Shown here one piece after another: positions 1,790-34,915 of a stretch of DNA of 36,421 nt; the first letter of the stretch is position 1, and every line of letters begins with the position of its first letter. Source of the DNA: a virus (lineage: Duplodnaviria; Heunggongvirae; Uroviricota; Caudoviricetes). The notes under the pieces are model-generated. The model was not told where the DNA came from. It saw only the letters and a program-made list of their open reading frames with translations, and did no database searches. The translations under genes were made by a program, and so were the position numbers. The stretch lies in the IMG/VR virus record IMGVR_UViG_2718218361_000002; one strand, given 5' to 3'.

Positions 1790-1817
1790 TAAAAAATAAG
1801 CCCGTGTAAGGGAGATT
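1790..1817. repeat. attL core (duplicate of the cyaR 3' end)
   Basis: TAAAAAATAAGCCCGTGTAAGGGAGATT, identical to 34888..34915; flanking bases differ on both sides. Confidence 0.85.
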
Positions 1818-5214: not shown

Positions 5215-5486
5215 GTATTCGTATTGAAATTGGCGAACGTTATGTCGTTACCAGTGACAGCTTTCAGTTTATTCTCCACGAGAAAAAGAGAGCGGAAAGC
5301 GGTAAAAACGCCGGTCAGGAATGGCTGGCGGTGGTTGGTTATTATCCGAAATTAAGCCAGCTCGTTTCCGGCCTGATGCATCACGATATTCTGACCGGAA
5401 GCGCAAAGTCTTTTGCTGATTTAAACGCGCAGGTTGAGCAACTCAGCAGGCGTTGTTCAGAGGCTTTTGGCTCATATGGCCGTTAA
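5211..5486 (+). CDS. hypothetical early protein (P2 orf83 position)
   Basis: 91-aa ORF, overlaps the A start. Confidence 0.6.
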   Translation: MSIRIEIGERYVVTSDSFQFILHEKKRAESGKNAGQEWLAVVGYYPKLSQLVSGLMHHDILTGSAKSFADLNAQVEQLSRRCSEAFGSYGR

Positions 5487-7752
5487 AGCCTCCGGGCGTT
5501 TTGTCCCTCCGTCAGCATTTGCCGCAGGCACCGGTAAGGCGTTTACCGGTGCTTATGCATGGAACGCGCCACGCGAGGCTGTCGGGCGCGAAAGACCCCT
5601 TACACGTGACGAGATGCGTCAGGTGCAAGGGGTTTTATCCACGATTAACCGTCTGCCTTACTTTTTGCGCTCGCTGTTTACTTCACGCTATGACTACATC
5701 CGGCGCAATAAAAGCCCGGTGCACGGGTTTTATTTCCTCACATCCACTTTTCAGCGTCGTTTATGGCCGCGCATTGAGCGTGTGAATCAGCGCCATGAAA
5801 TGAACACCGACGCGTCGTTGCTGTTTCTGGCAGAGCGCGACCAGTATGCGCGCCTGCCGGGGATGAATGACAAGGAGCTGAAAAAGTTTGCTGCCCGTAT
5901 CTCATCGCAGCTTTTCATGATGTATGAGGAACTCTGCGATGCCTGGGTGGATGCACATGGCGAAAAAGAATCGCTGTTTACGGATGAGGCGCAGGCTCAC
6001 CTCTATGGTCATGTTGCTGGCGCTGCACGTGCTTTCAATATTTCCCCGCTTTACTGGAAAAAATACCGTAAAGGGCAGATGACCACGAGGCAGGCATATT
6101 CTGCCATTGCCCGCCTGTTTAACGATGAGTGGTGGACTCATCAGCTTAAAGGCCAGCGTATGCGCTGGCATGAGGCGTTACTGATTGCTGTCGGGGAGGT
6201 CAATAAAGACCGTTCTCCTTATGCCAGTAAACATGCCATTCGTGATGTGCGTGCGCGCCGCCAGGCAAATCTGGAATTTCTTAAATCGTGTGACCTTGAA
6301 AACAGGGAAACCGGCGAGCGCATCGACCTTATCAGTAAGGTGATGGGCAGTATTTCTAATCCTGAAATTCGCCGGATGGAGCTGATGAACACCATTGCCG
6401 GTATTGAGCGTTACGCCGCCGCAGAGGGTGATGTGGGGATGTTTATCACGCTGACCGCGCCGTCAAAGTATCACCCGACACGTCAGGTCAGAAAAGGCGA
6501 AAGTAAAACCGTTCAGCTTAATCACGGCTGGAACGATGAGGCATTTAATCCAAAGGATGCGCAGCGTTATCTCTGCCGCATCTGGAGCCTGATGCGCACG
6601 GCATTCAAGGATAATGATTTACAGGTCTACGGTTTGCGTGTCGTCGAGCCACACCACGACGGAACGCCGCACTGGCATATGATGCTTTTTTGTAATCCAC
6701 GCCAGCGTAACCAGATTATTGAAATCATGCGTCGTTATGCGCTCAAAGAGGATGGCGACGAAAGAGGAGCCGCGCGAAACCGTTTTCAGGCAAAACACCT
6801 TAACCGGGGCGGTGCTGCGGGATATATCGCGAAATACATCTCAAAAAATATCGACGGCTATGCACTGGATGGTCAGCTCGATAACGATACCGGCAGACCG
6901 CTGAAAGACACTGCTGCGGCTGTTACCGCATGGGCGTCAACGTGGCGTATCCCGCAATTTAAAACGGTTGGCCTGCCGACAATGGGGGCTTACCGTGAAC
7001 TACGCAAACTGCCTCGCGGCGTCAGCATTGCTGATGAGTTTGACGAACGCGTCGAGGCTGTACGCGCCGCCGCAGACAGTGGTGATTTTGCGTTGTATAT
7101 CAGCGCGCAGGGTGGGGCAAATGTCCCGCGCGATTGTCAGACTGTCAGGGTTGCCCGTAGCCCGTCGGATGACGTTAACGAGTACGAGGAAGAAGTCGAG
7201 AGAGTGGTCGGCATTTACGCACCGCATCTCGGCGCGCGTCATATTCATATCACCAGAACCACGGACTGGCGCATTGTGCCGAAAGTGCCGGTCGTTGAGC
7301 CTTTGACTTTAAAAAGCGGCATCGCCGCGCCTCGGAGTCCTGTCAATAACTGTGGAAAGCTCACCGGTGGTGATACTTCGTTACCGGCTCCCACACCTTC
7401 TGAGCGCGCCGCAGCCGTGCTTAATCTGGTTGATGACGGTGTTATCGAATGGAATGACCCGGAGGTCGTGAGGGCGCTCAGGGGCGCATTAAAACACGGC
7501 CTGAGAACACCAAACCGTCAGCAAAGAAACGGAAGCCCGTTAAAACCGAATGAAATAGCGCCATCGGCCAGGCTGACCCGGTCGGAGCGTATGCAAATTA
7601 CCCGTATCCGTGTTGACCTTGCTCAGAACGGCATCTGGCCTCAGCGATGGGAACTTGAGGCGCTGGCGCGTGGAGCAACCGTAAATTATGACGGAAAAAA
7701 ATTCACGTATCTGGTCGCTGATGTGTGGCCGGGGTTCTCGTTACCCATTTGA
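5476..7752 (+). CDS. A: replication initiation protein A (rolling-circle nickase)
   Basis: ORF track 5434..7752; start placed at ATG 5476 (MAVKASGRFVPP...); ~758 aa; contains HWHMMLF (HUH-type motif) and tyrosine-rich GYIAKYISKNIDGY. Confidence 0.9.
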   Translation: MAVKASGRFVPPSAFAAGTGKAFTGAYAWNAPREAVGRERPLTRDEMRQVQGVLSTINRLPYFLRSLFTSRYDYIRRNKSPVHGFYFLTSTFQRRLWPRIERVNQRHEMNTDASLLFLAERDQYARLPGMNDKELKKFAARISSQLFMMYEELCDAWVDAHGEKESLFTDEAQAHLYGHVAGAARAFNISPLYWKKYRKGQMTTRQAYSAIARLFNDEWWTHQLKGQRMRWHEALLIAVGEVNKDRSPYASKHAIRDVRARRQANLEFLKSCDLENRETGERIDLISKVMGSISNPEIRRMELMNTIAGIERYAAAEGDVGMFITLTAPSKYHPTRQVRKGESKTVQLNHGWNDEAFNPKDAQRYLCRIWSLMRTAFKDNDLQVYGLRVVEPHHDGTPHWHMMLFCNPRQRNQIIEIMRRYALKEDGDERGAARNRFQAKHLNRGGAAGYIAKYISKNIDGYALDGQLDNDTGRPLKDTAAAVTAWASTWRIPQFKTVGLPTMGAYRELRKLPRGVSIADEFDERVEAVRAAADSGDFALYISAQGGANVPRDCQTVRVARSPSDDVNEYEEEVERVVGIYAPHLGARHIHITRTTDWRIVPKVPVVEPLTLKSGIAAPRSPVNNCGKLTGGDTSLPAPTPSERAAAVLNLVDDGVIEWNDPEVVRALRGALKHGLRTPNRQQRNGSPLKPNEIAPSARLTRSERMQITRIRVDLAQNGIWPQRWELEALARGATVNYDGKKFTYLVADVWPGFSLPI

Positions 7753-8012
7753 GTAAAAACACAACGTGATTTGATATGGCATTGAATGGCTTATGCGGAG
7801 CAGTTATGGGGCAGCAGAAGGTCAATAGCATGCTGAATTAGAAGGCTAAATGCTATTGAGTGACTAGCATGTCGGTAAGGACAGCCGTTTGATCCGGGTC
7901 ATAAAAGGCCATCCATTTAGTCTAATAAAATCATTGCGGGTAACCTTATGTCGACGCATAATTCGTCTTGAGCGAAGTCTTGTCAGTCTTTCATCGTATT
8001 GATGATGGGCGC

Positions 8013-8042
8013 AAAAAAACCACCCTGGCAGGTGGTTTTTTT
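8013..8042. terminator. bidirectional rho-independent terminator
   Basis: AAAAAAA-CCACC-ctggca-GGTGG-TTTTTTT; A-run upstream and T-run downstream. Confidence 0.7.
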
Positions 8043-8054
8043 GTTTGAAGCATA

Positions 8055-8168
8055 TTAAAGCATAATGCTGACATTGATATTACTGACGTTTACTGACAAA
8101 CCACTCGGACTACCGTTTGGATAGCCAAAGAGGGCCAGAACGAGAATGCAGTAATAGCATTTCTTCAT
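8055..8168 (-). CDS. small hydrophobic peptide (37 aa), candidate membrane peptide
   Basis: MKKCYYCILVLALFGYPNGSPSGLSVNVSNINVSIML; AGGAGG SD 5 nt before the ATG (plus-strand CAT 8166..8168); ends just before terminator 8013..8042; longer 88-aa reading exists but lacks an RBS. Confidence 0.3.
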   Translation of the reverse strand: MKKCYYCILVLALFGYPNGSPSGLSVNVSNINVSIML

Positions 8169-8646
8169 ATTGCCTCCTGTAAGTAGAGGGCAACTTCCAC
8201 CGGTATATGCGCTTGTTAGGTGGAATGACTTTTGAGCGAAGTCTTGCCCTGAAATAATGCTCTGTTTAAACGCAAAGTGATTTGGCATATCACCGAACAG
8301 AGAGCCGGAAAAACACAACATATAGTATGTCGTTGTTTCTAGACATACATTCTATGTTGTGTAACAAGGGCTTTGCATTAAACATGTTTGAGATTTTATT
8401 GATGTAGCTCAAAGTAAAAAACAGAGACTACGGATGATAAGGTCTTGAAAGCAATGTAAATTTTTTAAAGTTGCCAATTGCTTAAAAATGTACAGTTGCG
8501 GTATGGCGTACTTAAAAAGCTATGCATGCAACAAGTGAATGTTTTTGCATGCGCTGGGGATGTCCGTTCAGGCTGCGTGCGGTCAGGACTGGTGCGGATC
8601 CATAGTATCTATGCAACTGCATTAAAACCGCCCCGTGAAGCGGGCG

Positions 8647-8665
8647 GGCGAGGCGGGGAAAGCAC
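8647..8665. other. cos site (19-nt cohesive-end sequence)
   Basis: GGCGAGGCGGGGAAAGCAC, which I recall as the P2 cohesive-end sequence, in a GC-rich island inside AT-rich DNA. Confidence 0.7.
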
Positions 8666-8916
8666 CGCGCTCATGCAATGTGAAAATGTAATACCGATAG
8701 ACTTACCGTTTCAGAGTTAGGATGTTCATCATATTGAAGTAACATACGAGAGATTCAGCAGAGCGCAACAAGTTTGAGAAAACAGTCCATATATCTTAAC
8801 CTATTAGGACTGACGGAAAATGAAGCACTATTCTTCGTGGTTATTTAGTATAGTATTGACTTTTCAACACGATCAATGGTTTGATCAGTTCGTATGTAAT
8901 TGATTAAGGAAACTCA

Positions 8917-10350
8917 ATGAAAAAGCAAAGCGAAATTAACGTAAAAAAATTAGCATCATGGAGATTTTCATTTAAAAACATTGGGTGTATCTCTACAGGA
9001 GAAATTAATGCAAAACCTTTAACGCTTTTATGCGGAAAAAATAATACTGGTAAAACATGGGTTATGTATGGGTTATATGGCTTCCTAAATATGCCATCAC
9101 CATCTTTAAAATTGCCTCAAGTTGCAAATTTTGCCAAAACTCTTCGTGAAAATGGTAAGTTTGAATTAGATGTAATTGAGTGGATAAAAGATAATTTTAC
9201 GTTAATCAAAAGAGAATTTAATAAAGATTCATCTTTAATGCTTAAAGATGTATTCAACACTAATGATAAGGAAATTTTTTCTAATTCAACATTTGACTGG
9301 GTTATAGATGAAGAATCATTAGTATCAAGTGTTTATGAAAAAAAATTGGATGTTAGCCTCGTCATAGGAACCGGCAAAAAAGAAGTAATGCTATTATCCA
9401 AAGATAAAAATAGCAATATCATACAAATGACGCTGCTAGATTCTGCTTTCCCCAGAATTGATGGGTTTATAAACTTAACTCTAAGTCAGTTATTAAAGAT
9501 AGAGTATGATGAAAGCCCAGCATTTTTAATTCCCGCAGAAAGAAATGGCTTGCACCTTTTTTTCAATGAATTAAGTTCCAGAAGAACTGCGTTATTGCAC
9601 CACGCCTCAAAAGAACAGTTCGATCTGAACTCACTATTAATGGATGTAATGAAGTCTAAGTATTCTGCTCCTATAGCAAATTACATAGACTGGCTTAATG
9701 AAATTAAGGTTAATAGGAAAAATAAAAATGGCCAATTTCATAAATTAGCAGAAGAAGTAAAAAAAATAATTTCAGGAAAATATTCAGTTGATCCTGAAGG
9801 GCAGATTTATTTTTCAACGTATAAGAAAGGTAAGACACCTGCAAGTAAAATTGAACTTCATTTATCGTCATCCACTGTTAAAAGTTTGTTTGGCCTGTGG
9901 TTTTATTTAGAGCACCAAGCAAAAACTGGTGATATTTTAATGATTGACGAACCCGAGTTAAATTTACACCCGTCAAATCAGCGAGTAATTGCAAGATTTT
10001 TAGCAAAGCTAGTTAACTCTGGTATTCGGGTTATTGTTAGTACTCACAGTGATTATTTTGTAAAAGAAATCAATAGCTTGATTATGTTGCATGGCGTTTC
10101 TGAAAATATGATTGAAAAACGAAACGCTATCATGCAGAAGCAAGGGATTAGCATCGACTCAATTTTAGACTCTAACCTAGTCGCTGCGTATCTATTTGAT
10201 AATGGCTCAGTCAATGAAATGCAGAAGTCAAATGAAGGGATTAATGCTGTAACTTTTGATGAAGTAATTAATGCCATTAATGACGATAATGATGAAATAT
10301 ATTACTCCTTGGTGGAGAATGCCTCTGATAGTGAGGATGTAGATGAGTAA
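8917..10350 (+). CDS. ABC-type (AAA_15/AAA_21-like) ATPase, OLD/AbiLi/AriA/PtuA-like, family unassigned
   Basis: 477 aa; Walker A CGKNNTGKT, signature-like LSSSTVKSLFGL, Walker B DILMIDEPE, H-loop STHSDYF; ~280-aa insertion between Walker A and B; acidic C-terminal tail; SD TAAGGA; AT-rich. Confidence 0.85.
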   Translation: MKKQSEINVKKLASWRFSFKNIGCISTGEINAKPLTLLCGKNNTGKTWVMYGLYGFLNMPSPSLKLPQVANFAKTLRENGKFELDVIEWIKDNFTLIKREFNKDSSLMLKDVFNTNDKEIFSNSTFDWVIDEESLVSSVYEKKLDVSLVIGTGKKEVMLLSKDKNSNIIQMTLLDSAFPRIDGFINLTLSQLLKIEYDESPAFLIPAERNGLHLFFNELSSRRTALLHHASKEQFDLNSLLMDVMKSKYSAPIANYIDWLNEIKVNRKNKNGQFHKLAEEVKKIISGKYSVDPEGQIYFSTYKKGKTPASKIELHLSSSTVKSLFGLWFYLEHQAKTGDILMIDEPELNLHPSNQRVIARFLAKLVNSGIRVIVSTHSDYFVKEINSLIMLHGVSENMIEKRNAIMQKQGISIDSILDSNLVAAYLFDNGSVNEMQKSNEGINAVTFDEVINAINDDNDEIYYSLVENASDSEDVDE

Positions 10351-10915
10351 TATTATCAATGTAATACAAAGTTGCATCGATCCTACATTTCAATTAATGC
10401 GAGAGCAGGAATGCTGGGTTGTATGCGAAGAGAACCCAGGTGCTACAAATAAAAAATTACTGGTAAACGGAAATGGTATCTATGGATTTTCGCTAGATTC
10501 TAATAGTATTTCTAAACCAGTCTGGAAATTTTTAAAATCTTCTGCTTTACCAGGAGTATGCTCTGTTTGTGATGGAATTTTTGTTACGTCGCACAAAGAC
10601 GTAGATTATTTTATCGTAATAGATCTCAAATCTTATAACTCAAATGGTGCGGCTAAACAGGTAGTTACTGGCATTCATTTTTGTAAGTGGCTATATTCTG
10701 TATTGAATTTACATGGGCATTTGTCAAGAAAAGTGGATTACATTGGTGTAATAAGTAAATTATCGAGGAGGCAGCAATCAGCTAAAAAAACAACTGTTCG
10801 CTCGCAATTGCCTCCTCCTGAAATTTGCTATAATTATCCTGTGTTTACATTGGAAAACTATAACAGATTATCACTGGCGCATATTTGTGACTTTATATAC
10901 AATATGAAAAAATAA
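10343..10915 (+). CDS. small partner protein (190 aa), possible TOPRIM-like or PD-(D/E)xK-like nuclease, family unassigned
   Basis: ATG overlaps the ATPase stop by 8 nt, with GAGGA SD; motifs VVCEEN, CSVCDG, HKDVDYFIVIDLK; AT-rich. Confidence 0.8.
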   Translation: MSNIINVIQSCIDPTFQLMREQECWVVCEENPGATNKKLLVNGNGIYGFSLDSNSISKPVWKFLKSSALPGVCSVCDGIFVTSHKDVDYFIVIDLKSYNSNGAAKQVVTGIHFCKWLYSVLNLHGHLSRKVDYIGVISKLSRRQQSAKKTTVRSQLPPPEICYNYPVFTLENYNRLSLAHICDFIYNMKK

Positions 10916-10924
10916 AATCCTGCA

Positions 10925-10958
10925 ATTATTAGCCCCGGCAAATGCTAGGGCTAATTAT
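10925..10958. terminator. imperfect hairpin between convergent genes (weak terminator candidate)
   Basis: ATTAGCCC...GGGCTAAT 8-bp stem with 12-nt loop between the partner-gene stop and the Q stop; no clean T-run. Confidence 0.3.
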
Positions 10959-10973
10959 CATCTAAATATTGGG

Positions 10974-12002
10974 TTAATTATCGTCTAAAGAGTAATTTTT
11001 GAATTGAATAACTTCGGCGCTGAGCCAGCCGTTTATCTCGCGGATCCTGTCCTGTAGCGGGATAAGCTCATTGCGGACAAAGACCTTTGCCACTTTCTCA
11101 ATATCACCCAGTGACCCGACGTTCTCCGGCTTGCCGCCCATCAACTGAAAGGGGATGCGGTGCGCGTCCAGCAGGTCAGCGGCGCTGGCTTTTTTGATAT
11201 TAAAAAAATCGTCCTTCGTCGCCACTTCACTGAGGGGGATAATTTTAATGCCGTCGGCTTTCCCCTGTGGGGCATAGAGAAACAGGTTTTTAAAGTTGTT
11301 GCGACCTTTCGACTTGACCATGTTTTCGCGAAGCATTTCGATATCGTTGCGATCCTGCACGGCATCAGTGACGTACATGATGTATCCGGCATGAGCGCCG
11401 TTTTCGTAATACTTGCGGCGGAACAGCGTGGCTGACTCATTCAGCCAGGCAGAGTTAAGGGCGCTGAGATATTCCGGCAGGCCGTACAGCTCCTGATTGA
11501 TATCCGGCTCCAGCAGGTGAAACACGGAGCCGGGCGCGAAGGCTGTCGGCTCGTTGAAGGACGGCACCCACCAGTAAACATCCTCCTCCACGCCACGGCG
11601 GGTATATTTTGCCGGCGAGGTTTCCAGCCTGATAACCTTACCGGTGGTGCTGTAACGCTTTTCCAGAAACGCATTACCGAACACCAGAAAATCCAGCACA
11701 AAACGGCTGAAATCCTGCTGGGAAAGCCACGGGTGCGGGATAAACGTTGAAGCCAGAATATTACGTTTGACGTAAATCGGTGAGCTGTGATGCACGGCAG
11801 CACGCAGGCTTTTCGCCAGACCGGTAAAGCTGACCGGTGGCTCATACCATCTGCCGTTACTGATGCACTCGACGTAATCCAGAATGTCACGCCGGTCGAG
11901 TACCGGCACCGGCTCACCAAAGGTGAATGCCTCCATTTTCGGGGCGCTGGCGGTCATTTTTTTTGCCGCAGGTTGCGGTGTTTTCCCTTTTTTCTTGCTC
12001 AT
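10974..12002 (-). CDS. Q: portal protein
   Basis: 342 aa; MSKKKGKTPQPAAK...; P2 gpQ-like. Confidence 0.95.
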   Translation of the reverse strand: MSKKKGKTPQPAAKKMTASAPKMEAFTFGEPVPVLDRRDILDYVECISNGRWYEPPVSFTGLAKSLRAAVHHSSPIYVKRNILASTFIPHPWLSQQDFSRFVLDFLVFGNAFLEKRYSTTGKVIRLETSPAKYTRRGVEEDVYWWVPSFNEPTAFAPGSVFHLLEPDINQELYGLPEYLSALNSAWLNESATLFRRKYYENGAHAGYIMYVTDAVQDRNDIEMLRENMVKSKGRNNFKNLFLYAPQGKADGIKIIPLSEVATKDDFFNIKKASAADLLDAHRIPFQLMGGKPENVGSLGDIEKVAKVFVRNELIPLQDRIREINGWLSAEVIQFKNYSLDDN

Positions 12003-13774
12003 CAGTAAAACTCCAGAATGGTGGATGTCAGCGGGGTGCTGATACCGGCGGTGAGTGGCTCATTTAACAGGGCGTGCATGGTCGCCCAGGCGAGGTCGGC
12101 GTGGCTGGCTTCCTCGCTGCGGCTGGCCTCATAGGTGGCACTGCGTCCGCTGCTGGTCATGGTCTTGCGGATAGCCATAAACGAGCTGGTGATGTCGGTG
12201 GCGCTGACGTCATATTCCAGACAGCCACGGCGGATAACGTCTTTTGCCTTGAGCACCATTGCGGTTTTCATTTCCGGCGTGTAGCGGATATCGCGCGCGG
12301 CGGGATAGAACGAGCGCACGAGCTGGAACACGCCGACACCGAGGCCGGTGGCATCAATTCCGATGTATTCGACGTTGTATTTTTCGGTGAGTTTGCGGAT
12401 GGATTCCGCCTGGGTGGCAAAGTCCATGCCTTTCCACTGGTGACGCTCAAGTATTCTGAATTTGCCACCGGCCACCACCGGCGGTGCCAGTACCACGCAT
12501 CCGGCGCTGTCGCCACGGTGTGACGGGTCGTAACCAATCCATACCGGACGTGAGCCGAACGGATTTGTGGCAAACGGCGCATAGTCTTCCCATTCTTCCA
12601 GCGTGTCGACCATGCAGCGTTGCAGCTCCTCGAACGGGAACACCGATGCCTTGTCGTCAACAAATTCACACATGAACAGGTTTTTAAAATCGTCGGCGCT
12701 GTTTTCGCGTTTAAGCTGCTCAATGTCGAACAATGTGCAGCCGCCTTTCAGGGCGTCCTCAATGGTGACAATCTGCCGCCACTGGCCGTCCGCACAGAGA
12801 AGCCCACCGGCAAGGGCGTTATGACTGACGTCGATTTCCACGCGTTCGGCGGCGCTGGCGCGTCCCCGGTTAAACAGTTCACCGGACCAGAACGGGTAGG
12901 CGTCGTGCGCCAGCGTGGACGGGGTGGAGAAATAGGTCGAGCGCAGGTGACTCTGTGAGGCCATACCTGATGCCACCTTACGGAGCACCTGAAAATTCGG
13001 GATCCAGAAAATCTCGTCGACGTACAGGTCGCCGTTATGGCTCTGCGCGGTGTTGGAGTTGGTGCCGAGAAAAATCAGTTTTGCGCCGTTATTGCCCAGG
13101 ACAATCGGGTCACCGGTCAGGTCAACGTCAACCAGACGGGCAAAGGCGATGATGTATTCACGGAACACATACGCCTGCGTTTTACTGGCCGACAGAAAAA
13201 TCTGGTTATGGCCGGTTTTCAGGGCGCGCAGCAGCGCCTCGCGGGAAAAATAAAACGTCGCGCCAATCTGGCGGGATTTCAGGATATCGCGGATGCGGTG
13301 CTCAAGCCCTGCGCGATACCAGTGCAACTGATATTCGAAAGACTGCTCAAAGAAAATCTGCTCCAGCTTTTCGATGGCCTCGTCACTGAAAAAATTCTTT
13401 TTCGGTTTGCGACGCCCGCTTTTGTTGCGGTTAGCGACGTTCGGATTAAGGTCTGCCTCGTTGCCGGTCTGACTGTAACGGTTGACCCGTGCCAGTCGTT
13501 CAATCTGGCGTCCGAGCAGGTCAATTTCCTTGAAGTCACCGCCGGTTTTCTGCGGTTTGATGATGAGCTGGGTCAGTCGCGCTTCCAGACTCATTTCGAC
13601 ACGGCTGATGGGGGCAACGCTGTCCCAGCCGTCGCGCTGTTTCCAGCTCTGCACCGTCGGGCGTTTCATCTGCAACATGGCGGCAATCTGCGGCACGGAA
13701 AACCCCTGCCAGTACAGCAGCGCCGCCTGACGACGCGGGTCGTGTAAAAGAGTGGTGTCTGTGGTGATGGTCAT
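12002..13774 (-). CDS. P: terminase large subunit (ATPase)
   Basis: ORF track 12002..13804; start placed at internal ATG (MTITTDTTLLHDP...); 590 aa; P2 gpP-like. Confidence 0.9.
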   Translation of the reverse strand: MTITTDTTLLHDPRRQAALLYWQGFSVPQIAAMLQMKRPTVQSWKQRDGWDSVAPISRVEMSLEARLTQLIIKPQKTGGDFKEIDLLGRQIERLARVNRYSQTGNEADLNPNVANRNKSGRRKPKKNFFSDEAIEKLEQIFFEQSFEYQLHWYRAGLEHRIRDILKSRQIGATFYFSREALLRALKTGHNQIFLSASKTQAYVFREYIIAFARLVDVDLTGDPIVLGNNGAKLIFLGTNSNTAQSHNGDLYVDEIFWIPNFQVLRKVASGMASQSHLRSTYFSTPSTLAHDAYPFWSGELFNRGRASAAERVEIDVSHNALAGGLLCADGQWRQIVTIEDALKGGCTLFDIEQLKRENSADDFKNLFMCEFVDDKASVFPFEELQRCMVDTLEEWEDYAPFATNPFGSRPVWIGYDPSHRGDSAGCVVLAPPVVAGGKFRILERHQWKGMDFATQAESIRKLTEKYNVEYIGIDATGLGVGVFQLVRSFYPAARDIRYTPEMKTAMVLKAKDVIRRGCLEYDVSATDITSSFMAIRKTMTSSGRSATYEASRSEEASHADLAWATMHALLNEPLTAGISTPLTSTILEFY

Positions 13775-20148: not shown

Positions 20149-20221
20149 ATTTAATCATCTGAGAATATAAGATAGAAATCAATTAATTAGCATAATTTAT
20201 TTTGAATTTTCATGTTAATAA

Positions 20222-20247
20222 ATAAAAGGCCAGTTATTGGCCTTTTA
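20222..20247. terminator. bidirectional rho-independent terminator between convergent genes
   Basis: AAAAGGCCA-gttat-TGGCCTTTT with A-run and T-run flanks, between the S stop and the reverse-strand gene stop. Confidence 0.75.
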
Positions 20248-20250
20248 TCA

Positions 20251-21324
20251 TTACTTTCCATTTTTTAATGAATTGATTAACGATGCTATTTGCTCAATGC
20301 CATCAAATGTAGATGGTATCTTATCATCGGATAGCATGATGTTTGAAAATACTACGTCTTCGAATTTTGAAAGCGCTTCCGGATTGTTTTTCCTTATCTC
20401 TGAGGAATAGTCGCTATAACTCTGAATGAACTGACAAAGGCTCTTTCTGAGTTCTATTTGCATAATCTGAGTTCGTAACGATATATGATTTATCAGTACA
20501 ACTCTAAAGTAATACATGAAAATCAATGTAACTGATGCAAAAGGTAGTGCTGACATAAAATATGTGGCAGCATTTGTCGTTTCGAGAGTTGGTAATTTAT
20601 GCATTCCATAGTATATCAGCGGGGAGGGAATGATTATAGCCAAGATGATAAGAATTATTCTTGATAGCATGATTTCACTTTCTTTCTTTTTGCCAAGTGA
20701 ATTAAAGCCATCAAACAATCCAACAAAATTAAATGCGACCTCATACCCTTTTAATGACTCTTTAATTGACTCTATTTTGGCATGTTGCTCCTTTAAGAAG
20801 GAGTCGCACTTTTCGAAAAATTGACGCCCTTCGTTTAAACTATCAATGTATTTTTTATATGTGTCAACATTGCTGGAGCTTAAAACTTCTTTAACCATTG
20901 CTAATGGCAGTTCTCTAAGAGAAAAGTCTATCTGTGCTCTGCTCCGCTCATCGAATTCATTATAGTTATACAGAGCAAAATCCTTGATGGTTCTTAGTGG
21001 TGAAAAGTGAGACTCTATTTCCGGAGAGAGAATGCTTGGTTCAATGATAAATCTAAAAAAGCAAGTGAATATAAGGTTGATGCTGTTGTTATCTTCCCCC
21101 TTTTCTCTTAAGAAACTTTTAAAGGTGTCGCCAATCATAGCAATGTTGTACTGGGATTTTTTGTCCCAATCTTCAGGGTTTTCGGAAATGAAGTTTATTG
21201 CTTGAGCAATTATTTTGTTTCTGTTTGATTCAAAGTTTGTGCTGGGAGTCAGCGTGTTCAAAAAGACCAGATAATCTTTGAACAATTCTTTCATTGTTTC
21301 TGACGAGAAAAAGTAAGTACTCAT
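20251..21324 (-). CDS. hypothetical two-pass membrane protein (accessory gene at the S-V locus, P2 orf30 position)
   Basis: ORF track 20251..21420; start placed at internal ATG (plus-strand CAT 21322..21324) to avoid overlapping V; ~357 aa; hydrophobic helices IMLSRIILIILAIIIPSPLIYYG and YFMSALPFASVTLIFMYYFRVVLI; AT-rich, opposite to the late genes. Confidence 0.75.
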   Translation of the reverse strand: MSTYFFSSETMKELFKDYLVFLNTLTPSTNFESNRNKIIAQAINFISENPEDWDKKSQYNIAMIGDTFKSFLREKGEDNNSINLIFTCFFRFIIEPSILSPEIESHFSPLRTIKDFALYNYNEFDERSRAQIDFSLRELPLAMVKEVLSSSNVDTYKKYIDSLNEGRQFFEKCDSFLKEQHAKIESIKESLKGYEVAFNFVGLFDGFNSLGKKKESEIMLSRIILIILAIIIPSPLIYYGMHKLPTLETTNAATYFMSALPFASVTLIFMYYFRVVLINHISLRTQIMQIELRKSLCQFIQSYSDYSSEIRKNNPEALSKFEDVVFSNIMLSDDKIPSTFDGIEQIASLINSLKNGK

Positions 21325-21410
21325 AATGGATTTTGTTGTCCCTTGTTGTTCTGTGCACCAGAAATCGTGGTGTGATTTACTTCGAGATTGTACAGAATCA
21401 TTATTATCGA

Positions 21411-22040
21411 ATGAATGCACAATACAATGAAATTCTTCGCTTTATACGCAATATGATTCGCACTGGCATTATCGTCGAAACCGACCTTAATGCCGGTCGC
21501 TGCCGTGTGCAGACCGGCGGCATGTGCACCGACTGGCTTCAGTGGCTGACCCATCGCGCTGGGCGTTCGCGCACATGGTGGGCACCTTCCGTGGGGGAAC
21601 AGGTGCTGATTCTGGCCGTGGGCGGTGAACTCGACACGGCGTTCGTTCTGCCGGGGATTTATTCCGGCGATAACCCTGCGCCGTCTGCGTCGGCGGATGC
21701 CCTGCATATCCGTTTCCCTGACGGGGCGGTGATTGAGTATGAACCTGAAACCAGTGCACTCACGGTAAGCGGAATTAAAACGGCCAGCGTGACGGCTTCT
21801 GATTCTGTTACTGCCACGGTACCAGTGGTCACGGTGAAAGCATCAACCCGCGTCACCCTGGACACACCAGAAGTGGTCTGCACTAACAAACTGACTACCG
21901 GCACGCTGGAAGTGCAGAAGGGCGGGACGATGCGCGGCAACATTGAACACACCGGCGGTGAACTCTCATCAAACGGTAAGGTACTGCATACCCACAAACA
22001 CCCCGGCGACAGCGGCGGCACAACCGGGAGTCCTTTATGA
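21411..22040 (+). CDS. V: baseplate spike/assembly protein V
   Basis: ORF track 21333..22040; start at ATG 21411 (MNAQYNEILRFIRNMIRTG...); 209 aa. Confidence 0.9.
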   Translation: MNAQYNEILRFIRNMIRTGIIVETDLNAGRCRVQTGGMCTDWLQWLTHRAGRSRTWWAPSVGEQVLILAVGGELDTAFVLPGIYSGDNPAPSASADALHIRFPDGAVIEYEPETSALTVSGIKTASVTASDSVTATVPVVTVKASTRVTLDTPEVVCTNKLTTGTLEVQKGGTMRGNIEHTGGELSSNGKVLHTHKHPGDSGGTTGSPL

Positions 22041-26671: not shown

Positions 26672-27898
26672 ATGTTACAGTTCAGCTTTGTATCAAATGA
26701 CGTTGTTATGACTTACGACGGTGACAGCGGAGAACAAATAATTTGGGTTTGGGAGAGTTTAAATAAATTTCAAACAGTATGCATTTCACGCATTTTTAAC
26801 TTTCAACTCCAGGACTTGAGAAACCCACCGTCAACCGTTCAGGATTTTAATGATTATGAATATTCCTTTAATTTTGGCACGCTTAATAATGAATACATAA
26901 CAGTTCCGGGACGGATTCTAAGCATTAATCGAGATGTCCTTATACATAAGTCCATCAAGCTTGAAAGGAAAGTATTTGCGTCAGAACGCAACGTCTCCAT
27001 TTTTGGTCGGCTTTCAAAACTACTCGATCACACTAATCCCATCATCATCGGAGGAGATAAGCCGGAAGCTATACCAAAAAGCGTATTCCAGGAGTTGCAA
27101 AGTAAATTCCCCAACACAGGGGAACTGGATCGCTATGCTAATGCAAGGGTTCACGCTATTCTCGCAGGTTATCTTGATGGTATGAAAGATGCTCGCGAAC
27201 GGTATGAACATTACCTAAACAGAAAAACAGTGATCAGAAAAACCGACAAACTGGATTTAGAAGTTTTAAATAAGCTCGAAATTGAGAAATATACACTCAT
27301 AAGAGACATTATCCAGGATGCGTTGAATAACAAAACTAACTTGTCTGAAGATGACTGGCAGAGCCTGATGATACCCTTCATCACATTACTTTTTCCAAAA
27401 TATATCAAGGTCCTCGAGAAGGTTAAAATTTTCGACTATTACTCTAATCCTTCGGCTAAAACAAATCGGTTTATAGACATTGCACTGGTGGATGCAAACG
27501 GCAACCTTGATATCATCGAAGTCAAAAAGCCGTTTGATGATAAGATCCTTCGCAAGACGCCCTATCGCGACAACTATATTCCTACATCAGAACTTAGCGG
27601 CGGTATTATGCAGGCTGAAAAGTATATTTTTCATTTATCTAAATGGGGTGTTAAGGGTGAAAAAGAGCTTACGAATGCCTACAAGAATTCTCTGCCAGCG
27701 GGAATGTGTATTCGTATATCTAACCCAAAAGCCATCATCATTGTCGGGCGCGATCAGATAGCGAACGGTAACATGACCGACGGTCAGTTGCTTGATTTTG
27801 AGATAATCAAACGTAAGTACGCCAACATGATAGACATATTGACGTACGACGACCTGTTGCGTCGACTTAATAATACGATTGAAGCATTGAAAGGTTGA
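26672..27898 (+). CDS. PD-(D/E)xK nuclease-like protein, Shedu/DUF4263-like candidate (accessory gene at the G-FI locus, P2 Z/fun position)
   Basis: 408 aa; SD GAGGAA; C-terminal half has RFIDIALVDANGNLDIIEVKKP (D...D...ExK) followed by AIIIVGRD; AT-rich. Confidence 0.8.
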   Translation: MLQFSFVSNDVVMTYDGDSGEQIIWVWESLNKFQTVCISRIFNFQLQDLRNPPSTVQDFNDYEYSFNFGTLNNEYITVPGRILSINRDVLIHKSIKLERKVFASERNVSIFGRLSKLLDHTNPIIIGGDKPEAIPKSVFQELQSKFPNTGELDRYANARVHAILAGYLDGMKDARERYEHYLNRKTVIRKTDKLDLEVLNKLEIEKYTLIRDIIQDALNNKTNLSEDDWQSLMIPFITLLFPKYIKVLEKVKIFDYYSNPSAKTNRFIDIALVDANGNLDIIEVKKPFDDKILRKTPYRDNYIPTSELSGGIMQAEKYIFHLSKWGVKGEKELTNAYKNSLPAGMCIRISNPKAIIIVGRDQIANGNMTDGQLLDFEIIKRKYANMIDILTYDDLLRRLNNTIEALKG

Positions 27899-34887: not shown

Positions 34888-34915
34888 TAAAAAATAAGCC
34901 CGTGTAAGGGAGATT
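34888..34915. repeat. attR core (lies in the 3' terminator end of cyaR)
   Basis: TAAAAAATAAGCCCGTGTAAGGGAGATT, identical to 1790..1817. Confidence 0.85.

Follow-up and report, generated by a model that had tools for sequence, protein, structure and literature searches.

The window (the whole 36,421-nt stretch of DNA analysed here) contains an apparently intact P2-like prophage in which a cassette with a predicted PD-T4-4-type defence system lies between the cos site and the portal gene Q. Judged from its sequence, we consider it quite probable that this cos site is functional and that the cargo occupies a slot to the right of cos that was already known. We propose that the 55-bp cos core would split the variable region between genes A and Q into two independent cargo slots, of which the left one, the place of tin and old in P2, appears to hold no recognisable gene in the window, while the right one is filled by the 2.3-kb PD-T4-4-type cassette. 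Across related loci, the left and right slots assort independently. The features on which this description is based are listed in Table 1.

An earlier note on this DNA had placed the cargo on the Q side of cos, at an insertion point other than that of P2 but in the same hotspot. This second insertion point within the A–Q hotspot is correct, but it is not new, since Dodd & Egan 1996 (Virology 219:115) is cited for the cos-to-portal position in PMC6868368 and PMC5694545. The window adds one more cargo type to a known slot.

Table 1. Positions of the main features of the prophage in the window.
Feature	Position	Strand	Basis or remarks
attL	1790..1817		28-bp repeat with P2 attP core AAAAAATAAGCCCGTGTAAGGGAGATT; P2 homology begins here
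Replication endonuclease gene A	5476..7752	+	Pfam Phage_GPA 5.9e-123; DNA 97% identical to that of P2 A as far as 7739
Left sub-slot, A to cos core	7753..8617		865 bp, no recognisable gene
55-bp cos core	8618..8672	+	29 nt left + 19-nt cohesive end (8647-8665) + 7 nt right
Foreign cassette, right sub-slot (cos to Q)	8673..10989	+	Replaces P2 nt 25-208
PD-T4-4_A-type AAA ATPase, 477 aa	8917..10350	+	PADLOC PD-T4-4_A 2.1e-112, residues 16-465, full length
PD-T4-4_B-type partner, 190 aa	10343..10915	+	PADLOC PD-T4-4_B 1.2e-15, residues 2-155; PHROG 14491 8e-138
Hairpin between convergent cargo operon and Q	10931..10956		Stem TTAGCCCC/GGGCTAA; sequence, RNA fold, inverted repeat I17
Portal gene Q	10974..12002	-	Pfam Phage_portal; 96.7% DNA identity to P2 from 10990 (= P2 nt 209)
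Terminase large subunit gene P	12002..13774	-	Pfam Terminase_6N, Terminase_6C, Terminase_5; RefSeq CDS limits
attR	34888..34915		Second exact 28-bp direct repeat copy

The prophage and its cos site

The prophage (1790–34915) is syntenic with P2 from attP core to attP core, and its excision would give a circle of 33,098 bp, compared to 33,593 bp for P2. In addition to genes A, Q and P, open reading frames were found where P2 carries int, C, cox and B, and for D and ogr at the right end, with the late genes between them covered by blocks of P2 homology. The host flank is yegS/yegR, the site of a prophage in E. coli W that Archer et al. (PMC3032704) named Wphi2. This 33.1-kb prophage integrated next to yegR thus appears to be intact. 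For gene A, Table 1 gives the RefSeq CDS limits in E. coli W and S21; its open reading frame starts further upstream, at 5434. Among 5,426 complete genomes of E. coli, 19 contained the entire arrangement of cos, cargo and Q, including W and its derivatives, S21, H14, ST2350 and CFS3246; three of the 19 carried a variant that is 87% identical.

Elsewhere in the prophage, a full-length Shedu protein (PADLOC SduA 1e-219, Pfam SduA_C) is encoded at 26672–27898 on the plus strand, at the position of Z/fun in P2, which is the second P2 defence hotspot. Together with the PD-T4-4-type pair, this brings the number of defence systems in the prophage, as judged by homology, to at least two. Between genes S and V, the P2 homology is interrupted (20153–21447), and orf30 of P2 is replaced by a 389-aa open reading frame on the minus strand (20251–21420) that had no match in Pfam or PADLOC.

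The 19-nt cohesive end, GGCGAGGCGGGGAAAGCAC, occurs on the plus strand at 8647–8665, with no chance match expected in the window, and is identical to the annotated cosL/cosR of P2 (NC_001895) and to the start of P4. It had been recognised as the P2 cohesive end in the earlier note, and the match is both exact and unique. A second cos-like site near Q, which would have undermined the reading, was not found, as no other site with up to 3 mismatches to GGCGAGGCGGGGAAAGCAC exists in the window. The limits of the core were set by aligning the circularised P2 and P4 junctions with the window, and the sequence common to P2 and P4 amounts to 29 + 19 + 7 = 55 nt. This is the size of the “55-bp core” that is credited to Ziermann & Calendar 1990 in PMC9122126, PMC9594776 and PMC5694545; the sharing of the cos core by P2 and P4 is stated in the first two of these.

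In the alignment, the window is identical to P2 at 29 of 29 positions to the left of the cohesive end and at 19 of 19 within it. The right 7 nt read CGCGCTC in the window, TGCGCGC in P2 and CGCGCGC in P4, corresponding to 6/7 matches with P4 and 5/7 with P2, so that the window core equals that of P4 at 54 of 55 positions. At core position +1, the window shares the C of P4. The G-to-T change at +6 was found in only one of the 120 IMG/VR loci described below (L102), a near-identical copy of the cos-to-Q region of the window.

A GC-rich inverted repeat (8628–8647; CCGCCCC-gtga-a-GCGGGCGG) is present in the left part of the core and was flagged on the minus strand by the terminator scan. Over the 120 loci, the loop bases of this dyad differ (GTGA, ATGA, GCAA or ACGA), while most of the stem bases are constant. 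A varying loop on a mostly conserved stem suggests that the dyad matters for cos function.

Both P2 and P4 are packaged by the P2 terminase, and P4 has no sequence in common with P2 other than the 55-bp core. The core would therefore be sufficient for the terminase, and the DNA beyond position +7 would be free to vary, making the sequence just past the core presumably dispensable. The DNA flanking the cos core has been reported to affect the efficiency of cosmid transduction (PMC9594776).

The distance from the end of A (7752) to cos is 894 bp, and that from cos to the Q stop codon (starting at 10974) is 2,308 bp, in line with the figures of about 0.9 and 2.3 kb estimated in the earlier note. 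The layout of P2 given there was accurate as well. In NC_001895, cosL occupies nt 1–19 and the Q stop lies at nt 187, and the gap of 167 bp between them contains only the tQ terminator (160–181), while orf91, tin and old are located between A and cosR. Coding space is thus absent from the cos–Q interval of P2; its presence there, at a comparable size, had been named as an observation that would speak against a different insertion point. The total A–Q interval is similar in the window (3.2 kb) and in P2 (3.4 kb).

The 865-bp module in the left sub-slot of the window is not homologous to orf91, tin or old of P2. Its sole open reading frame of at least 50 aa (8055–8321, minus strand, 88 aa) had no match in Pfam (up to E = 5), PADLOC or PHROG, and accessory genes of the P2 tin/old type were not found between A and cos in the window.

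The cassette between cos and Q

BLAST homology to P2 breaks off at 8670 and returns at 10990, within the last codons of Q, and the left breakpoint is the same when the window is compared to phages 9W, 720R8 and P2DC1. The absent P2 sequence amounts to 184 bp, comprising the spacer, tQ and about seven Q codons, and about 2.3 kb are found in its place. The C-terminus of Q reads SLDDN in the window and SLDTDND in P2. The cassette has a GC content of 28–36%, compared to 50–58% in the phage backbone. By this AT-rich composition and by its matches to the PD-T4-4 profiles, the cassette is foreign DNA of a predicted defence system.

The larger of the two cassette proteins also matches Pfam AAA_15 (6e-26) and AAA_21 (8e-17), and PHROG 13167 over its full length. 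The smaller one had no Pfam match even at E = 5. The description of the two genes as an “ATPase pair” in the earlier note consequently holds for the 477-aa protein, but not for its 190-aa partner. The genes overlap by 8 nt and agree with PD-T4-4 in both operon organization and profile matches, and the pair is predicted to have an anti-phage function.

The cargo operon reads away from cos and is convergent with Q. Between them lies a hairpin that is likely to substitute for the lost tQ terminator. The hairpin did not pass a consensus terminator scan, which identified no consensus terminator after the cargo operon, and a consensus scan of 8673–8916 gave no convincing plus-strand promoter for the operon. 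The right arm of the hairpin overlaps the upstream copy of a 19-nt direct repeat (10948–10966 and 10971–10989; 89% identical). This copy lies inside the cassette and represents a vestige of a duplicated Q 3' end, with codons for LDDN followed by a stop codon. It is probably the scar of an earlier recombination or cassette swap within Q.

We suggest that cassettes are exchanged by recombination, with the cos core and its left flank as one site of exchange and the 3' end of Q as the other. If the terminase cuts at this cos, the virion DNA would begin, at its left end, with the ≈2.3-kb cassette, and the cargo would lie at roughly nt 27–2,340. This would place the PD-T4-4-type system at the very left end of the packaged genome. 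In the lysogen, where cos is internal, the side of cos on which the genes lie should be irrelevant to defence-gene expression.

Recurrent use of the right slot and its independence from the left side

We scanned IMG/VR for exact occurrences of GGCGAGGCGGGGAAAGCAC and obtained 120 loci, including 96 P2-like and 22 P4-like ones. In most of the P2-like loci, the cos–Q gap is about 176–182 nt by the measure used here. Cargo to the right of cos was present in 10 of the 96 P2-like loci (≈10%), as a gap of 936–3,214 nt in eight of them and in two loci that end before Q. In a second sample, consisting of one genome per species, right-slot cargo was found in 2 of about 15 P2-like loci. The comparison of related prophages for cargo on either side of cos, which had been proposed as a check, showed that the right side is used repeatedly.

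The cargo in the right slot is diverse defence material, comprising DRT2, an Avs5-like SIR2-STAND protein, a type IV retron (reverse transcriptase and 2TM), PDC-S02, one or more other AAA ATPase pairs and genes without an assignment. In all cargo-bearing loci, including those with unrelated cassettes, the divergence starts directly after the 7 nt that follow GGCGAGGCGGGGAAAGCAC on its 3' side. The same junction, after core position +7, was seen in the 87%-identical PD-T4-4 cassette of E. coli DETEC-S565, which is preceded by the consensus edge TGCGCGC and by another left module. This copy (L129, 7227–9529) belongs to a P2-like prophage with an IS21-family element, ISEc12, between Q and P, and is probably defective.

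The 865-bp left module of the window recurs at 99.8–99.9% identity in L014, L019, L044 and L102. There it is paired with PD-T4-4 (L102), with a HEC-02-like ATPase pair (L014 and L044) or with an empty right slot (L019). In L019, the left module and the cos core are unchanged and are followed by a standard spacer of ≈170 nt leading straight to Q. The two slots thus assort independently. L019 (IMGVR_UViG_2579778773_000009) is also a locus with essentially no hotspot #1 cargo on either side of cos.

Among 77 isolated Peduovirus records, a small and highly redundant sample, every readable one has the short cos–Q gap, and no right-slot cargo was found in the isolated coliphage records listed. The difference from the ≈10% of prophage loci could be due to sampling bias, or could hint at a cost in packaging or viability.

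We found no cargo shared by P4-like and P2-like loci, neither by tblastn with 14 right-slot proteins nor by blastn of the right flanks of P4-like loci against both flanks of P2-like ones. The apparent cases of P4/P2 shared cargo came from matches to L034 only, and were rejected because L034 is itself a P2-like locus.

Exact P2 cos cores were also present in five genome_contigs loci (L137, L143, L153, L160 and L162) labelled as Bacillota, Vagococcus, Clostridiales and Lachnospiraceae. Two of these contain a P2-like Q gene, one of them together with A, and the loci most likely represent enterobacterial contamination or mis-binning.

Alternative explanations and comparison with known systems

The points that weigh against a functional cos with cargo in its right slot are the change at core position +6, the loss of tQ with a presumed replacement hairpin that fails the terminator scan, the lack of an operon promoter by scan, the short gap in the isolated phages and the reported effect of cos flanks on cosmid transduction. 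One alternative is that cos is a relic, in which the replacement of the 184 bp (tQ and right flank) together with the +6 change has crippled packaging, so that the prophage would persist as a fixed defence island instead of spreading as a phage. The rarity of the +6 change, restricted to the window element and L102, would fit this explanation, as would the loss of tQ, the absence of right-slot cargo from the isolated phages as opposed to ≈10% of prophage loci, the influence of flanking DNA on cosmid transduction (PMC9594776), the defective state of the BL21 prophage that bears Ec86 (see below) and the insertion element in the DETEC-S565 copy. However, the core differs at a single position from that of P4, which is itself packaged by the P2 terminase, and the prophage is full length, retains P2 synteny and has the A, Q and P genes as well as int, D and ogr open reading frames. 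The contrast between prophage loci and isolated phages is lessened by the redundancy of the phage sample. Moreover, the phages phiCTX and phiRSY1 carry genes at the same position and are viable (PMC5694545), indicating that the arrangement is compatible with packaging. Overall, we regard a relic cos as unlikely.

It might also be supposed that the cargo is an ordinary module of the tin/old side and that cos was transposed to its left, which would agree with the similar total length of the A–Q interval in the window and in P2. This is hard to reconcile with L019, where the same left module and cos core are followed by the usual spacer, showing that cos is in its usual place and that the right side alone was swapped. 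Right-slot cargo was never found to the left of cos elsewhere in the 96 loci, except for a reverse transcriptase homologue of 23% identity in L020, and a displaced cos is hardly credible. The precise left junction and the foreign, AT-rich composition could, on the other hand, point to a cassette that inserted itself as an autonomous mobile element, similar to a transposon or retroelement, rather than by recombination between phages. Such an element would be expected neither to replace 184 bp of phage DNA instead of interrupting it, nor to share a single left junction with unrelated cassettes, and the vestigial Q 3' end within the cassette points to earlier recombination in Q. The cassette also lacks a transposase or integrase gene, terminal inverted repeats and a target-site duplication, making self-insertion very improbable.

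A more far-reaching version of the preferred reading is that the gpA–gpQ hotspot really consists of two independently evolving slots, the right one matching the position of the P4 hotspot. The cargo of this slot could then either impose a cost on packaging efficiency or on Q/P termination, and so mark prophages that drift towards domestication, or the shared cos could serve as an anchor for recombination in the exchange of cargo between helper and satellite. We consider this extended scenario rather doubtful.

The practical consequence of a right slot is mainly one of bookkeeping, and the understanding of P2 packaging and of defence hotspots is unchanged. The surveys of hotspot #1 (Rousset 2022, Vassallo 2022, NAR 2026), in the parts of their text available to us, treat the whole gpA–gpQ interval as one locus “adjacent to cos”, with the two sides unseparated. 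They therefore already include the right slot, but merge two slots that assort independently. Splitting the hotspot at the cos core should allow a sharper reconstruction of the movement of defence cassettes. As expected from these surveys, the defence cargo of the window is inside P2 hotspot #1, whereas the cargo of P2 itself (tin and old) is on the A side.

A close parallel to the window is found in the retrons Ec86 and Ec67 (Eco1 and Eco2) of prophages related to 186 and P2 (Dodd & Egan 1996). In BL21, we checked the order of elements to be a 186-type cos (GGCGTGGCGGGGATACGAG), CGCGCGC, the retron effector, msr/msd, the reverse transcriptase and the portal gene on the minus strand, so that a cassette unrelated to that of the window, Ec86, fills the cos-to-portal slot. 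The slot, the junction following the core and the size of the cargo (≈2.1 kb in BL21) are similar to those in the window. The cargo in the window, however, is a PD-T4-4-type ATPase pair and not a retron, its cos is of the exact P2 type and not of the 186 type, and its prophage looks intact, whereas that of BL21 is a defective remnant.

The position between cosL and the gpQ homologue was described as a hotspot for foreign genes in PMC5694545, which cites Dodd & Egan 1996 and Nakayama 1999 on this point. Like the prophage in the window, phiCTX, phiRSY1 and phiRSA1 belong to the P2 family and carry accessory genes in the interval from cosL to the portal gene, namely ctx in phiCTX and open reading frames in phiRSY1 and phiRSA1. 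They differ from the window in their hosts (Pseudomonas and Ralstonia), in their cos sequences and in their cargo, which consists of a toxin or Vgr-like open reading frames.

When cos is oriented as in P2, the hotspot of the satellite P4 with its variable cargo (gop-beta-cII; NC_001609, L127, 1–2540) is found, like the cassette in the window, to the right of cos and begins directly after the same 7-nt edge of the core. Unlike the window, P4 is a satellite that has no Q gene, and no cargo was common to the P4-like and P2-like loci in our sample. PD-T4-4 itself was described as a two-gene operon by Vassallo et al. 2022, and both proteins of the window match its PADLOC profiles. The original system came from an ICE-like element and not from a P2-like prophage (PMC9519451).
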